A stretch of 5,551 nt of DNA from a virus (lineage: Duplodnaviria; Heunggongvirae; Uroviricota; Caudoviricetes), in IMG/VR virus record IMGVR_UViG_2778261534_000003, one strand, 5' to 3'. The notes below the pieces were generated by a model. It was given only the letters and a program-made list of their open reading frames with translations. It was not told where the DNA came from and did no database searches. Each line of letters starts with the position of its first letter. Within the stretch, counting starts at the first letter, position 1. A program made the translations under genes and the position numbers. Positions 1 through 5,551 of this stretch are shown here, one piece after another.

Positions 1-26
1 TGACAAGATGTGTATCTACCTTAACT

Positions 27-50
27 TAATGATTTTGATAAAAATCATTA
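27..50. repeat. 10-bp perfect inverted repeat (taatgatttt / aaaatcatta) with 4-bp spacer gata, 23 bp upstream of the recombinase fragment
   Basis: Read directly: arms at 27-36 and 41-50 are exact reverse complements. Reverse complement of 31-41 is TTATCAAAATC, which resembles (from memory, unverified) the TTATCAAAAAC half-site of Hin/Gin-family crossover sites. Function unknown. Confidence 0.4.
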
Positions 51-72
51 GGGGATTCATCAGTGCTTAGCA

Positions 73-366
73 TTGGGTGGCATTGACCTGACCAGTCCAA
101 CAGGAAAAATGATGATGCAAGTAATTTCAGCAGTCGCTGAATTTGAACGAGACCTTTTACTTGAACGCACTCATTCCGGGATAGTAAGAGCCCGCGGCGC
201 AGGGAAACGTTTTGGTCGACCACCTGTGTTAAATGAAGAACAGAAACAGGTGGTATTCGAACGAATTAAGTCAGGTGTAAGTATAAGTGCCATTGCCCGG
301 GAATTCAAAACCTCGCGGCAAACCATTTTAAGAGCCAAAGCAAAACTTCAGACACCTGACATATAA
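73..366 (+). pseudogene. 5'-truncated serine recombinase (resolvase/invertase family) fragment: C-terminal ~97 codons only (E-helix plus helix-turn-helix DNA-binding domain)
   Basis: Translation ([35 protein letters not shown]...[21 protein letters not shown]) matches the C-terminal half of Tn3/gamma-delta resolvase and Hin/Gin/Pin-type recombinases. The N-terminal catalytic domain with the active-site serine is absent. In-frame stops at 1-3, 22-24 and 49-51, and the other two forward frames are also closed upstream. The ORF would have to start at TTG (73). Confidence 0.6.
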
Positions 367-463: not shown

Positions 464-601
464 CTACGGCAGTGCTGGCCATTCAATATCCGGTACTACT
501 GATGTATTAACACGGTTCAGCAACACCCGATACTTTTTCCAGACTTCCAGCAACGAAGTTTCTTCCTCCGTTGCGATTTCCAGCTCAACAACAGTCTGAA
601 C
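464..601 (-). pseudogene. tfa: 3' remnant of a lambda-type tail fibre assembly gene (Tfa C-terminal ~45 codons), in the same frame as stf and immediately after its stop
   Basis: Minus-strand translation after the stf TGA (638-640) reads [57 protein letters not shown], stop at 464-466. [31 protein letters not shown] is the conserved C-terminus of lambda Tfa as I recall it. No start codon or N-terminal Tfa region is present. Confidence 0.65.
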
Positions 602-637: not shown

Positions 638-1075
638 TCAATGTTCGCTTCCTGTTAACTGCCCGACAAGTGCAACCAGTTCGCTTACCTGATTTTCCAG
701 AGTGCTGATCCGGGTGCCTGCTGTTGCCAGATTTTTACGTAGCGTTATGTTTTCCTCTTCCAGCGCGGTAACGCGACCATCTGTTTCACGGGCGACCTGA
801 ACAAGTAACCCCGTCACGGCGGCGTAGTCAACATTCAGATAACGTGTTTCTTCACGTAATTCATTGCCGTCAACCGTTGGTCCCTGCAACTCTTCACCGT
901 AATGAGTAAACGATCCTACAGCTTCTGGTATCGCCTCCATTACTTCCTGTGCAATAACGCCAGCATAAGGCATCCCGTTTTCCCTGAGCGTGTAGGTGTA
1001 TCCGTTCATTTTACGGATTGCTTTCGTCGCGTCGCTGATAACGAGAATATCGTCTTTAAGGTCGCGGTCTGATGA
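638..1075 (-). other. Stf C-terminal intramolecular chaperone / autoproteolytic domain (peptidase S74-like, 'chaperone of endosialidase'), residues ~1058-1202
   Basis: SSDRDLKDDI has the Ser-x4-Lys dyad spacing of S74 chaperones. Hallmark blocks GVIAQEVMEAIPEAV and YLNVDYAAVTGLLVQVARE are followed by a coiled-coil-like tail, and the domain ends at the protein C-terminus as in endosialidase and T5 L-shaped fibre proteins. Confidence 0.7.
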
Positions 1076-4000
1076 CTGATTCAGCGTTGTGCAATTAATA
1101 GCGCCATTTACATCAAACAACTGGCCTGCTGACGTTTTTTGCGCATAAAACAGATACGCAGCAGACGTTCCAACCTCAAAAACGTTTTGTCGATCACTTG
1201 ATCCCCATACTTTTGCGGCAAATGATAGTTCTGTATTACCTAAGTTCTGTAAAACAAAACGATTGCCAGTCCCTGTTTGTTTTGTAAGAGTTAAATCAAC
1301 AGTTGAGTTAACCTCATCCTTGTTGATAGTGAGCGCCTGCGCTTTAGCCCCGTTAACAGCACCTGTTTTGAGTTGAACCGCGCCGTCATTACCATTTAAC
1401 AGTATCTCAGCTCCGCTAAAGAAATTTTTTAGCGACAGCATCTTACTTACGCCGACTGATGAACCCAACGCCCACGCGAGAGAATTACCGGTGCTATCAA
1501 ACCCACGTACAAAGCAATCCATTTTGCTATAGTCTGACGTGCTTCCAAGGACATCAATCCGCCCTCCGCCAGATTTTACCGGGTTAGATGTGGTTAATGA
1601 CCTGACAGCAAGATCGGTAGATGAATTGAGATCGTCTACTGTTAATAGTCGTTTCCATCCCTTATCAACCCCAGCCTCAAAGCTTCTTGCCCAAAATTTG
1701 GAGTTGCGACCGGCGAATTGTGTGACGTAATTACCGCTAAATTGAGCATGGAATCCGCCAACAACCATTGTTCCGTCAGGACCGCCTGCGCTCCCTGCTA
1801 TTGGCTTAAACTTATTTACATTCTCTGTATGTTGAGTGCTCCAGTTTTGCCCTGTGTGAACAACCAATCCCTGATAAGAACTGAAGGTACCATCAAGGTT
1901 AAAATTAAAGAACTTACTGTTCCCTGAATTATTTATGTCCCTGACAACAATTTCACCAGAAGCGTTAGCGGCCCTTAGTTCAGTTTGATCGACAACCGGA
2001 CCTCCTTCGGATTGTAATCTTTGAGAAACAAATGTTCTGTTTGAAGCGTCCGTACCGTACGCGGTGAAAGATTGTGTTGCTTTAATCTGACCATTGTTTA
2101 CAAATATAGGAATAGTGACGGTAAAATTTTTGTCAAAACTCAGGCCATTTGTTAATGCAATCCTTTCTGACACCCCTTGTCTGAACGGAAGGTTGCTGTA
2201 GAAGCCATGTTCACCGCCAGTGAAGTCAAGAACATTTTTAACAAAGTTCTTGTCGTTATCCTCCGTTGACGTTGATACACCAAACTTATATCTAACCCCG
2301 TTGTCACCAATTACGTAGTCTTCTGTTGGAACCTTAACTTTTGCCTTGTAGCCAGTTTGCACAACGACAGGAAAAGCGCTTTTATGGATGTAGAAAGCTA
2401 CATGCTGCGCATAATCTCTTTGCGACGCTTTAATGCAAAGTATCCCGAGTTCATTTTTTTCATAGCAAACAAATGACCCGTAAGCCACATCGCGAACGTC
2501 ACTCCAGCCACCACATCGAATGAACCCAAAAAATGAGTTACTATTAAGCGGATTTGATGCCGGACCTCCTGCTGTTTTTATTTCAACAGGACATAACATG
2601 GCACCGCTCCCATTCATTGCGGATGTGTCTATTATGACAGGGTAGTATTTGCCATCCACTGCACCACCAGGGGCATTAAGGGTCATTGCTTTTGTTAATC
2701 CACCCTCAGGGATTTGCAAATTAGTTTTGGCGTCATCAAGGCTATTTGCGCCAGTGCCACCATGAGAAACATCAAGTGGTATCCATTTTTTTTGTGTGTC
2801 GCTGTAACACCCCCATGTTGATCCGGTTAACCCCAGGCGCATGGATTTATCATGGTTATATAACCATGTTTCGCTATTCCATTGGTCAAGACGGTCCACT
2901 TCATTTTTGCGAGCGTGGCGTGTCCATTGCGGGCCTGTTGTCGGACTCCAGCGATAGGTATAAAGCGAGCGAGTAGTCCATCCCTGAAATACACCTGTAT
3001 ACGCTGGAGTTCCATCTACCTGACTAATAAACCCCGTAAGACTGCTTTCACCGGATGCAATAGACGGGAAACCTGTTGCATCAGCCATGATGCGCATAAA
3101 GCCAATATAACCTGATGGATTTCCTGAGATGTCAGAGCAACCACGCGGTGATGATCCCAAACCGATGTTAGTACCAACAATACCCTGGGCCTGGTTGCGA
3201 TAATTAAGTGCGTCCGCCGCAGATTTCGCCGCGTTTGTTTCACTGGATTTAGCATTAGTTTCGCTGGCTTTAGCGTTGGTTTCGCTGCTCTTTGCTGCTG
3301 CCTCGCTATTTTTCGCGTTGGTTTCTGATTTTTTGGCTGCTGTCGCGGAGTTTGCCGATGCAGTTTGTGAGTCTGCTGCCGCCTGTGCGCTGTTATCCGC
3401 ATTCGTCTCAGACGTTTTTGCGGCCTTCGCGGAATTTCCTGCCGCCGTTGCCGAGGAAGCGGCACTGCTGGCGCTCGAGGCAGCGCTCGTTTCTGATGAT
3501 TTTGCCGCCTCTTTTGAAGCCGACGCATCCCGGGCTGAGGTGGCAGCTTCTGACGCTTTCGTGGTCGCGGTGGATGCAGAAGTGGCTGCTGATTGTTGTG
3601 ATGCTGCAGCATTCGTTTCTGACGTTTTCGCCGCACCGGCACTGGTGGCTGCCGCGCTTTTTGAGGACTCTGCTGCGGCAGCACTTTTTAATGCTTCAGT
3701 GGCCTTTGTTGATGCCGTTCCTGCGCTGGAAGACGCTGACTGAGCCGACGACGCGGCCTGTCCGGCTGACGTGCTGGCTGCGCGTGCTGAGCCTGCAGCA
3801 TCAGTCGCATGGGTTGCCGCCTCACGGGCTGATGTGCTGGCATCGCCGGCTGACTTCTTCGCGGCTGCCGTGTCCTGTGCCACTGCGGACGCGTTACGCG
3901 CCACCTCTTCCACCATCAGTTCAAAACGGCGCAGTGCCTCCGGACGGGCATCATCCTCCGTCATGGCACCGAGAAAATCATTCAGCGTACCCGGTTGAGA

Positions 4001-4240
4001 ATCTTCATACACGGTGATGGTCCCGGCATGTGACGGCGGGAATCCCTCCACCAACAGAATAACGCTGTACTGGCCGTGCTCAACGTCCATGCTGTAACGC
4101 CCTGCTTCATCCGGATTTTCAGATGCCACCGTGTTCACCACCACCGTGGTGCTGTTACGTTTTGCTTTCAGCTGGATTGTGCAGTTCTGTACCGGTTTAC
4201 CTGCACCGTCTTTCAGTACACCTGAAATCTTTACTGCCAT
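638..4240 (-). CDS. stf: Side tail fibre protein (lambda Stf family N-terminus, Ala/Ser/Thr-rich shaft, divergent distal domain, C-terminal intramolecular chaperone)
   Basis: 1200-codon ORF. The N-terminus MAVKISGVLKDGAGKPVQNCTIQLKAKRNSTTVVVN... closely matches lambda Stf. ATG at 4240-4238 gives the lambda-like MAVKISG start; the ORF track's start at 4246 is a GTG two codons upstream. Possible Shine-Dalgarno GGGGTG just upstream. Contains a PLDVSHGGTGANSLDDAKTNL motif typical of phage fibre proteins. C-terminal 145 residues are an S74-type chaperone domain. Confidence 0.9.
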   Translation of the reverse strand: MAVKISGVLKDGAGKPVQNCTIQLKAKRNSTTVVVNTVASENPDEAGRYSMDVEHGQYSVILLVEGFPPSHAGTITVYEDSQPGTLNDFLGAMTEDDARPEALRRFELMVEEVARNASAVAQDTAAAKKSAGDASTSAREAATHATDAAGSARAASTSAGQAASSAQSASSSAGTASTKATEALKSAAAAESSKSAAATSAGAAKTSETNAAASQQSAATSASTATTKASEAATSARDASASKEAAKSSETSAASSASSAASSATAAGNSAKAAKTSETNADNSAQAAADSQTASANSATAAKKSETNAKNSEAAAKSSETNAKASETNAKSSETNAAKSAADALNYRNQAQGIVGTNIGLGSSPRGCSDISGNPSGYIGFMRIMADATGFPSIASGESSLTGFISQVDGTPAYTGVFQGWTTRSLYTYRWSPTTGPQWTRHARKNEVDRLDQWNSETWLYNHDKSMRLGLTGSTWGCYSDTQKKWIPLDVSHGGTGANSLDDAKTNLQIPEGGLTKAMTLNAPGGAVDGKYYPVIIDTSAMNGSGAMLCPVEIKTAGGPASNPLNSNSFFGFIRCGGWSDVRDVAYGSFVCYEKNELGILCIKASQRDYAQHVAFYIHKSAFPVVVQTGYKAKVKVPTEDYVIGDNGVRYKFGVSTSTEDNDKNFVKNVLDFTGGEHGFYSNLPFRQGVSERIALTNGLSFDKNFTVTIPIFVNNGQIKATQSFTAYGTDASNRTFVSQRLQSEGGPVVDQTELRAANASGEIVVRDINNSGNSKFFNFNLDGTFSSYQGLVVHTGQNWSTQHTENVNKFKPIAGSAGGPDGTMVVGGFHAQFSGNYVTQFAGRNSKFWARSFEAGVDKGWKRLLTVDDLNSSTDLAVRSLTTSNPVKSGGGRIDVLGSTSDYSKMDCFVRGFDSTGNSLAWALGSSVGVSKMLSLKNFFSGAEILLNGNDGAVQLKTGAVNGAKAQALTINKDEVNSTVDLTLTKQTGTGNRFVLQNLGNTELSFAAKVWGSSDRQNVFEVGTSAAYLFYAQKTSAGQLFDVNGAINCTTLNQSSDRDLKDDILVISDATKAIRKMNGYTYTLRENGMPYAGVIAQEVMEAIPEAVGSFTHYGEELQGPTVDGNELREETRYLNVDYAAVTGLLVQVARETDGRVTALEEENITLRKNLATAGTRISTLENQVSELVALVGQLTGSEH
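3212..3904 (-). repeat. Low-complexity Ala/Ser/Thr-rich coding repeat region of the Stf shaft (residues ~115-345), including degenerate tandem ~21-nt units encoding K(S/T)SETNA heptads (clearest at 3224-3340)
   Basis: Protein shows AAKTSETNA, AAKKSETNAKNSEAAAKSSETNAKASETNAKSSETNAAKSA. DNA shows reiterated tttagcgttggtttcgctg-like units at 3241-3330. The region is GC-rich and open in several frames. Confidence 0.6.
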
Positions 4241-4249
4241 ATTCACCCC

Positions 4250-4278
4250 ACAAAAAAGCCCGCCTGAACCAGCGGGCT
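4250..4278 (-). terminator. Intrinsic (rho-independent) terminator downstream of lom: 7-bp GC-rich stem (4257-4263 / 4272-4278), 8-nt loop, then a run of six T on the minus strand
   Basis: agcccgc / gcgggct are exact reverse complements. On the minus strand the hairpin is followed by TTTTTTGTG (complement of 4249-4257). It lies about 27 nt after the lom stop and about 10 nt before the stf ATG. Confidence 0.65.
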
Positions 4279-4304: not shown

Positions 4305-4904
4305 TCAGAACTTATAACCAACACCCACGATGAACCCGTCAGTGCGCCAGTCGCCACTGCCGGAGCCTTCATAAGCGACATCAATGGCCACCGATTCGGT
4401 CGGGTTAAACTGCACGCCAGCTCCCCACGCCAGAGACGTGTTGCTGTGGTGACCGTCATCACTTCCGGTCAGCACATCATGCGTTTTCCCCTTGTTGTCA
4501 GTTACGCGGAGATAATCCCCGGAGAAAGTCGACACACGGCTGTAAGCCACACCCGCCATCGCATACGCGCTGAACCATTCATTCACGCGCACAGACGGTC
4601 CCGCCATCACGCTGAACCAGCGGTTACGCACGGAATCCTCATGCCAGCGGGTATCGCTGTAATGCGTTTTTTGCTCATCTTCAGCGTTGGCATAACTGAA
4701 TGACGTAATCAGCCCCAGCGTGTCCGTAAACTCATAACGGTATTTCACGTTAATCCCGTTCAGATTATCGCTGCCGGGAGCGTTCGTACGGGCATGAAGA
4801 TACCCTGCGCTCAGTGTGGCCTGCTGCTCAGACGCCCATGCAGGCGCACCGGATACGGCCAGACAGATGGCTGCGGACAAAATGGCTGCATAAACTTTAC
4901 GCAT
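4305..4904 (-). CDS. lom: Lom outer membrane protein (Ail/Lom/OmpX family beta-barrel; lambda lysogenic-conversion 'moron' gene)
   Basis: 199-aa product MRKVYAAILSAAICLAVSGAPAWASE...GINVKYRYEFTDTLG...WRTDGFIVGVGYKF is near-identical in pattern to lambda Lom as I recall it. Has a signal peptide with an AWA-S cleavage motif and a C-terminal aromatic residue typical of outer-membrane barrels. Shine-Dalgarno GAGAGG at 4910-4915, 5 nt upstream of ATG (4902-4904). Confidence 0.92.
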   Translation of the reverse strand: MRKVYAAILSAAICLAVSGAPAWASEQQATLSAGYLHARTNAPGSDNLNGINVKYRYEFTDTLGLITSFSYANAEDEQKTHYSDTRWHEDSVRNRWFSVMAGPSVRVNEWFSAYAMAGVAYSRVSTFSGDYLRVTDNKGKTHDVLTGSDDGHHSNTSLAWGAGVQFNPTESVAIDVAYEGSGSGDWRTDGFIVGVGYKF

Positions 4905-4925: not shown

Positions 4926-4952
4926 AATAAAAAAGGCGCCATTTCTGGCGCC
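4926..4952 (-). terminator. Intrinsic terminator between J and lom: palindromic stem GGCGCC (4935-4940 / 4947-4952), 6-nt loop, then TTTTTTATT on the minus strand
   Basis: Read directly: ggcgcc atttct ggcgcc, with the A-run at 4929-4934 on the plus strand giving a U-tract on the minus transcript. Begins about 20 nt after the J stop. Confidence 0.65.
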
Positions 4953-4971
4953 CGTATTGGGGTTATAAAAT

Positions 4972-5551
4972 TCAGCTGATACTGATGCCTGCGGTGGCTT
5001 TCTTCATCACCACAACCAGCAAATCGCTGATACTTGCTGTGGGATACCAGTCATTTACCAGCCATGCTGACACCGAAAACTCCAGCGTCATGTGGCCGCG
5101 ACCAGCTGGCATATCAATAACACCACTGTAAATCAGCGTATTATCCAGCGCGGTATGGTTATAAATTTCAGCACCGTTTTTCCGTACTATCAGGCGGCAT
5201 GAGGAGTAGATATCAGTATGATCTTGCTCATGTTTAGCGCCACTGAATGCCACCGCCGGGATAACAATTTGCCGGTCAAACGGCTGATCGTCATAAACCC
5301 TGACGGTAATGGTCCCTGATGGCCACCGCTCCGGTGCACGGGAGTCCCGGGGGAAAGCCTTACCCACTGTTTTGACAATATCACCTTCAATCTGGTTGGC
5401 TGACAGTTTCCCCTTAATCTGACAGTTCTCATTAATCGTGACATTGTTGAGCGTCCCGGCGTTCGCATTCACACTGCCACTGATATCTGCATTTTTAGCG
5501 GTCAGCTTTCCGTCTGATGTCAGGGAAAATACCGGAGGACTGCCACCGCTG
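4972..5551 (-). CDS. J: Host specificity / central tail fibre protein J, C-terminal (receptor-binding) portion; 5' end lies beyond the window
   Basis: The frame stays open from the window edge to the stop at 4972-4974. My translation of 5473-5550 continues [27 protein letters not shown] into [16 protein letters not shown]..., matching the lambda J C-terminal region as I recall it. The listed 166-aa ORF merely starts at an internal GTG. The extreme C-terminus differs from lambda J. Confidence 0.85.

Follow-up and report, generated by a model that had tools for sequence, protein, structure and literature searches.

The question raised by this locus is what the outer half of its side tail fibre (Stf) consists of, and what that half does. 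The window (the whole stretch of DNA analysed, 5,551 nt, from IMG/VR virus record IMGVR_UViG_2778261534_000003) includes an stf gene. A reading of the sequence alone had placed between its repeat shaft and its chaperone a single large domain of some 700 residues without a recognisable family, proposed to be a receptor-binding or enzymatic module. The region consists of four or five beta-rich, exchangeable modules in series, and makes up the outer half of the side tail fibre of a prophage. The fibre itself is an allele of a known class of chaperone-bearing lateral tail fibres, found almost unchanged in a sequenced phage, and no new kind of system is revealed by the analysis.

The stf open reading frame (638..4246) lies on the minus strand, as do all the parts of the fibre described below, and encodes 1202 aa from a GTG start. 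An ATG two residues further on (MAVKISG) would give a protein of 1200 aa. Both the RefSeq annotation and the PF08400 match begin there, and the ATG at 4240 is probably the true start. The residue numbers used here follow the GTG start, whereby residues 350-1057 correspond to positions 1076-3199 of the window; the end at 3200 given previously for this region is one base out of frame. Starting at the N-terminus, residues 1-140 (3827..4246) form the virion-attachment domain, which is of the lambda type. PF08400 (phage_tail_N) covers residues 3-136 (E 1.6e-71), and residues 3-96 match the N-terminus of the lambda tail fibre in PDB 9e7m (E 5e-51), the first ~95 residues being nearly identical. The chain then continues as an Ala/Ser-rich repeat shaft (residues ~141-349; 3200..3826), assigned from the translation. 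A shaft of like type is present in the lateral tail fibres (LTFs) of T5-like phages and in IrisVonRoten gp22. The GC content of the shaft DNA climbs to 0.55-0.62, and a single short tandem repeat of 21 nt was detected within it. The shaft region, where the GC content reaches 0.62 with a strong AT skew, gives rise on both strands (window 3016-4017) to long spurious reading frames of 222, 155 and 241 aa, in other frames or on the opposite strand; they should not be taken for genes.

The genes that precede stf are arranged as in lambda-like phages, as judged from the reading frames and annotations. Of the tail tip gene J the window contains the 3′ end (4972-5551, minus strand); lom (4305..4904, minus strand), which encodes an Ail/Lom outer-membrane protein, comes next and lies directly upstream of stf. 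On the minus strand lom lies between two strong terminator-like hairpins that carry T-runs, at 4934-4953 and 4257-4278. Rho-independent terminators are annotated at the same places in the record of phage mEp460, and this coincidence suggests that lom and stf are transcription units separate from J.

The general character of residues 350-1057 is as the sequence-only reading described it. Gly, Ser, Thr and Asn together make up 36.6% of the residues (G 11.7, S 9.5, T 8.2 and N 7.2%), and there are eight cysteines, at positions 370, 480, 552, 578, 594, 604, 911 and 1052. The beta-rich character is evident from DSSP analysis of an AlphaFold2 model, which contains ~50 strands and only a few short helices. 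The lack of a family also stands, since searches of the region against Pfam, NCBIfam and PDB sequences are all without a match. Within these, the 708 residues match no Pfam family at E<=1, the whole protein has no NCBIfam match, and the best match of the region to a PDB sequence has an E value of only 0.39. When the whole protein and the region were compared with Pfam, NCBIfam and the PDB there was no match inside residues 350-1000. PHROGs does include a family that covers the region almost in full, phrog_6578 ‘tail fiber protein’ (E 1e-299); positions 506-1210 of its profile match residues 473-1189 (E=0, 1557 bits).

The description as one domain is not sustained. The region is a string of at least four mutually unrelated modules, and on the basis of homology breakpoints and AlphaFold2 five can be delimited: M1a (350-448), M1b (449-515), M2 (516-690), M3 (705-872) and M4 (873-1057). 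BLAST comparison with phage homologues and 224 database proteins reveals many relatives that match only from residue 350 to ~872 and diverge beyond. A HMMER search run exhaustively over 1.84 billion representatives returned only 198 clusters at E<=0.001, and the stretches matched, numbered from the start of the region, are of four kinds: 1-165, with a small recurring unit at 96-165, then 170-336, 364-525 and 524-708. AlphaFold2 predicts beta domains with confidence at model residues 10-160, 170-335 and 360-520, and has low confidence at 545-708. The limits of the predicted domains, the HMMER stretches and the BLAST breakpoints thus coincide, indicating several modules rather than one domain. 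Profile–profile comparison with hhalign shows M1, M2 and M3 to be mutually unrelated (probability 0.3%). An origin by internal duplication was rejected on the same hhalign probability between modules and on self-BLAST, which finds no repeats. The AlphaFold2 prediction was made for the monomer only, using an alignment of 61 sequences (mean pLDDT 72.5, pTM 0.40). At this pTM the relative orientation of the domains is arbitrary, and a Foldseek search with the multi-domain model is consequently of limited use. No curated domain family takes in three of the modules, M2 above all; when 79 module relatives were scanned against Pfam, only those of M4 gave an informative result.

M1a (2903..3199) is an autonomous beta domain, delimited by AlphaFold2 and homology, and also a variable cassette. 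Most of it is predicted with a pLDDT of 70-92, falling in the first ~10 residues and in the block 440-449, and the stretch 1-165 of the region to which it belongs recurs in other fibres. M1b (2702..2902) is a small recurring fibre unit that ends with the motif GGTGA..A..NLQI. The corresponding unit (96-165 of the region) is repeated in other fibres, up to nine times per protein, and the motif matches a ‘putative tail fiber’ in PDB 7z47 (E 1.5e-8) and LtfA of phage DT57C (8hqz). Searched against the PDB, the M1 alignment profile found nothing beyond this short GGTGA motif.

M2 (2177..2701) is a self-contained all-beta domain of ~170 aa and the most widespread of the modules. Its motifs GKYYPV, DPMNNC, GGWSD, ERAI and EARAFPV are kept in relatives from Escherichia, Salmonella and Aeromonas phages at only 25-35% identity, and P22, N54, F111 and P112 (module numbering) are invariant. 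This conservation of polar residues (N, D, E, W and Y) would fit a ligand, metal or catalytic site, and would also fit a trimer interface. A fold search with M2 alone found no close solved structure; M2 is therefore a widespread, confidently folding domain without a solved relative. The T4-like Aeromonas phage 25 encodes (at 2208-6125) a ‘gene 36’ tail fibre protein of 1305 aa with an M2-like domain in mid-chain, at about residues 432-554. M2 is by this token common to the side fibres of siphoviruses and the long tail fibres of myoviruses. M3 (1631..2134) is a beta domain with the conserved motif GGFHxxFSGNYxxQxAGRN and a pLDDT of 71-84, bar one low loop. The corresponding stretch of the region (364-525) recurs in other fibres, and M3 has no match in the PDB or Pfam. 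The matches of the M2 and M3 profiles in the PDB were to antibodies at chance level (E 0.035-1.7), and were rejected.

M4 (1076..1630) is the module for which profile homology leads to solved structures, and is assigned as a trimeric ‘triangular’ beta domain, which would lie at the far end of the fibre after maturation. The M4 profile aligns with the C-terminal region of T4 gp34 (5nxf, 4uxe and 9x3r; E 1e-10, gp34 residues ~960-1017) and T7 gp17 (7boz, E 9e-5; 4a0t, E 8e-4; gp17 residues 378-474), but the likeness to the two proteins covers just ~55-95 residues of M4. The sequence of the Stf itself matches gp34 at E 0.04. Seven of 11 M4 relatives match the Pfam family PF20744 (gp37_trimer); the M4 of the window has no match to it at E<=1. 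The gp34 residues concerned lie mostly in the P3 triangular domain, comprising three antiparallel sheets with a hydrophobic core, and extend into the first residues of the triple beta-helix that comes next, at 1014-1047 (Granell et al., PMC5537660). Triangular domains of the P3 type are also found in T7 gp17 and T5 pb1 (PMC5537660). The pLDDT of M4 in the monomer model is low (37-71), which fits an intertwined trimer. There is a difference of position, in that the triangular domain of gp34 is internal to the triple beta-helix, whereas M4 would be terminal once the chaperone had been removed.

From the end of M4 the chain passes directly into the C-terminal intramolecular chaperone (residues 1058-1202; 641..1075), which ends with a coiled coil. 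Peptidase_S74 (PF13884) matches residues 1059-1110 (E 2.6e-12), a C-terminal domain as in the fibres and spikes of the T5 pb1 and K1F endosialidase type. The motif SSDRDLK (1058-1064) follows M4 immediately and contains the Ser...Lys (S-x4-K) dyad, S1059...K1064, with the spacing of the dyad in S74 chaperones. It aligns with SSDRRIKKD of PDB 6f45, a chain of a long tail fibre distal subunit, and is the predicted site of autocleavage, at S1058/S1059.

The side tail fibre of phage mEp460 (AFM76057.1) is 98% identical across all 1202 residues and follows J and lom in the same order. The proteins are essentially no different; the contexts are, mEp460 being a phage with a complete sequenced genome whereas the chromosomal copy that matches best belongs to a defective prophage at the Qin site. 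In the papers listed among those that mention mEp460, the name serves only as a label for prophage typing. Neither a receptor or structure for the mEp460 fibre nor a receptor for this allele was found in the literature on mEp460 and on the BASEL phages with this fibre. Among the latter, the lateral tail fibre of FritzHoffmann (Nonagvirus) is 81% identical in the region. Identity falls to 35-45% for the lateral fibres of the T5-like phages VAH1 and SP1a, the Seuratvirus OddieOddie and the Vequintavirus WalterGehring.

The lateral fibres of T5-like phages (T5 pb1, DT57C LtfA and the Ltf of VAH1 and SP1a) have the same order of Ala/Ser-rich shaft, beta modules and S74 chaperone. The VAH1 fibre is 43% identical over residues 206-1183, and the C-terminus of DT57C LtfA matches the profile that includes the flanks (E 2e-18). 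The placing of a triangular domain before the chaperone in T5 pb1 (PMC5537660) is repeated in the Stf of the window, but the N-terminus of the latter is of the lambda (PF08400) and not the T5 type. T5 pb1 gave no sequence match in the PDB searches. The DT57C structure 8hqz was considered as a solved relative of the tip and rejected; only the N-terminus is modelled, and distal LtfA is absent (PMC10713586).

With lambda Stf the fibre shares the ~95-residue N-terminus (9e7m) and the order J-lom-stf. The distal end of lambda Stf is gp37-like, needs the separate chaperone Tfa and binds OmpC. Unlike this, the distal end of the fibre described here comprises M1-M4 and an intramolecular S74 chaperone, and a gp37-like end of the Tfa type is not found. 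The R2 pyocin fibre and the receptor-binding proteins of Staphylococcus phage K/phi812 (6cl6, 6cu2, 5m9f and 9euf) also rank among the nearest comparable proteins. T-shaped fibres with dual receptor-binding domains (IrisVonRoten gp24, Gordonclarkvirinae and Wifcevirus) combine a globular domain, a T5-like tip and a chaperone in one chain, and are non-enzymatic (PMC11990801). The same BASEL-2 paper proposes two receptor-binding domains within one chain, with horizontal exchange of modules across morphotypes (PMC11990801). The present fibre likewise has globular modules, a chaperone and exchangeable parts, but with three globular modules against one. Membership of the T-shaped Gp12-like/T5-like family was rejected, as similarity to gp24 is limited to the chaperone by BLAST and module HMMs and there is no gp12-type Pfam match.

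The way in which the modules vary between close relatives bears on their function. Prophage Stfs that are near-identical, with 94-100% identity in the N-terminus, shaft, M4 and chaperone, differ by the replacement of single blocks. The block 360-445 (M1a) has 57-88% identity between Stfs that are otherwise >=95% identical. The block 452-497 (M1b) is swapped independently (about 52% identity in P0091), and in the block 523-765, which runs from M2 through the linker into M3, the identity of M2 is about 76%. The edges of the blocks are sharp and located at conserved joints, such as GGTGA..NLQIPEGGL at 496-517. The relatives P0226 and P0228 are without M2-M3 while retaining M1a and M4. This pattern of block replacement is the cassette exchange expected of determinants of host range. 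Published work treats the LTFs of T5-like phages and of small siphoviruses as O-antigen binders, essential when the host is smooth but not when it is rough (PMC8594841, PMC10713586, PMC4690869 and bioRxiv 10.64898/2026.05.19.726188). We consider it probable that the distal half of the fibre is host-recognising, and that it attaches reversibly to a variable surface polysaccharide, which it leaves uncleaved, so speeding adsorption before J acts.

The assembly and action that we infer would proceed from the C-terminal end. The S74 domain (1058-1202) would nucleate homotrimerisation, and would then cut itself off at S1059...K1064 (S1058/S1059) to leave M4 as a free tip, its three chains intertwined in a triangular beta domain of the kind seen in T4 gp34 and T7 gp17. 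M1a, M2 and M3 would be autonomous beta domains, present in three copies each as beads along the distal shaft, with short trimer joints between them, of which the GGTGA..NLQI motif in M1b is an example. One or more of these three, together with M4, would bind O-antigen or a similar variable polysaccharide reversibly. This would precede the engagement of an outer-membrane receptor by J, and specificity would be altered by recombinational exchange of whole modules. A more particular proposal, which we hold only tentatively and think may well be wrong, is that M2, and possibly M1a and M3, are undescribed families of lectin-like beta-sandwich, the Asn/Asp/Glu/Trp cluster of M2 being a sugar- or metal-binding site. 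The fibre would then be a multi-valent adhesin of multiple specificity with up to four receptor-binding modules per chain. If true, this would extend the idea of the dual-RBD T-shaped fibre to lambdoid prophages.

Other roles for the region can be set against reversible binding by the distal half. The earlier proposal is partly supported, with receptor binding the probable function and an enzymatic module improbable. A pectate-lyase-like beta-helix was sought as that reading had suggested, and no long right-handed parallel beta-helix catalytic domain was found. Pfam searches, and structure searches with the multi-domain model and with M2 alone, gave no match to a pectate-lyase beta-helix, an esterase or a credible sialidase anywhere, so that a depolymerase, glycosidase or deacetylase that degrades or modifies surface polysaccharide is highly improbable here. 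Matches to sialidase and beta-propeller structures were rejected (probability <=0.21, TM <0.1). It is less improbable, although still unlikely, that M4 alone binds the receptor, with M1a, M1b, M2 and M3 serving as structural beads or spacers that set the length and stiffness of the fibre. The receptor-binding domain of T5 pb1 is the part directly before its chaperone (PMC4690869; also cited in bioRxiv 10.64898/2026.05.19.726188). The invariance of the M2 core motifs in distant relatives, the mid-fibre location of the M2-like domain in the Aeromonas protein, and the existence of P0226 and P0228 would all suit a spacer. Yet it is M1a, M1b and M2 with its linker that are swapped, while M4 is mostly 94-100% identical, and this is the pattern expected of specificity determinants; the proposal of two receptor-binding domains per chain in the BASEL-2 paper also argues against spacers. 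We retain reversible recognition of polysaccharide by the distal half as the preferred reading. Side and lateral tail fibres set the O-antigen or capsule types that can be adsorbed, and their parts are swapped in host-range engineering. Many E. coli prophages carry this type of fibre, as do several phage families, and a module map with exact boundaries and conserved joints would guide the design of chimeras.

A further alternative concerns the gene rather than the protein. In TUM1887 (NZ_CP128963.1, 1-17488), which is 100% identical from window position 64, the gene is at the site of the Qin cryptic prophage, between pinQ and lom, with ydfJ, ydfK, pinQ ... gnsB, ynfN and cspI as neighbours of the locus. 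There stf and lom are intact, while three tail genes (J, the tape-measure gene and one other) are pseudogenes. The surrounding prophage is thus defective in the best-matching complete genome, and this copy may never reach a virion. Downstream of stf lies a 126-nt tfa remnant (464-589, minus strand), at the place where CP128963 has a RefSeq pseudogene ‘tail fiber assembly protein, missing N-terminus’. It is followed by the 3′ part of a pin-type invertase gene (pinQ; 64-366, plus strand). A tfa remnant and pin next to an S74-bearing stf look like a former invertible stf-tfa cassette in which the distal end has been replaced by the S74 type; with its own intramolecular chaperone the Stf should not need Tfa. 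The cryptic prophage site, the pseudogenes, the tfa remnant and the IS-disrupted pin gene would suit an inert relic, of use only as a store of fibre modules with which incoming phages could recombine. Against this, the 3.6-kb reading frame is intact, and is 97-100% conserved in the 79 complete E. coli genomes that contain >=80% of the window. A single cluster at 90% identity contains 1361 member sequences. The same protein is present in mEp460, a phage with a complete sequenced genome. We regard an inert relic as quite improbable, and it would in any case bear on this copy and not on the role of the protein in recognising the host.

The remaining end of the window (1-63) is the end of an IS4-family element (ISVsa5/IS10-like) that abuts the pin gene; in the source genome, pinQ has lost its 5′ third to this insertion. 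Alignment of the window to other genomes begins only at 61-64. A 66-nt query taken from the IS end is found in 733 E. coli genomes, in up to 42 copies each, by genes annotated ‘IS4-like element ISVsa5 family transposase’.
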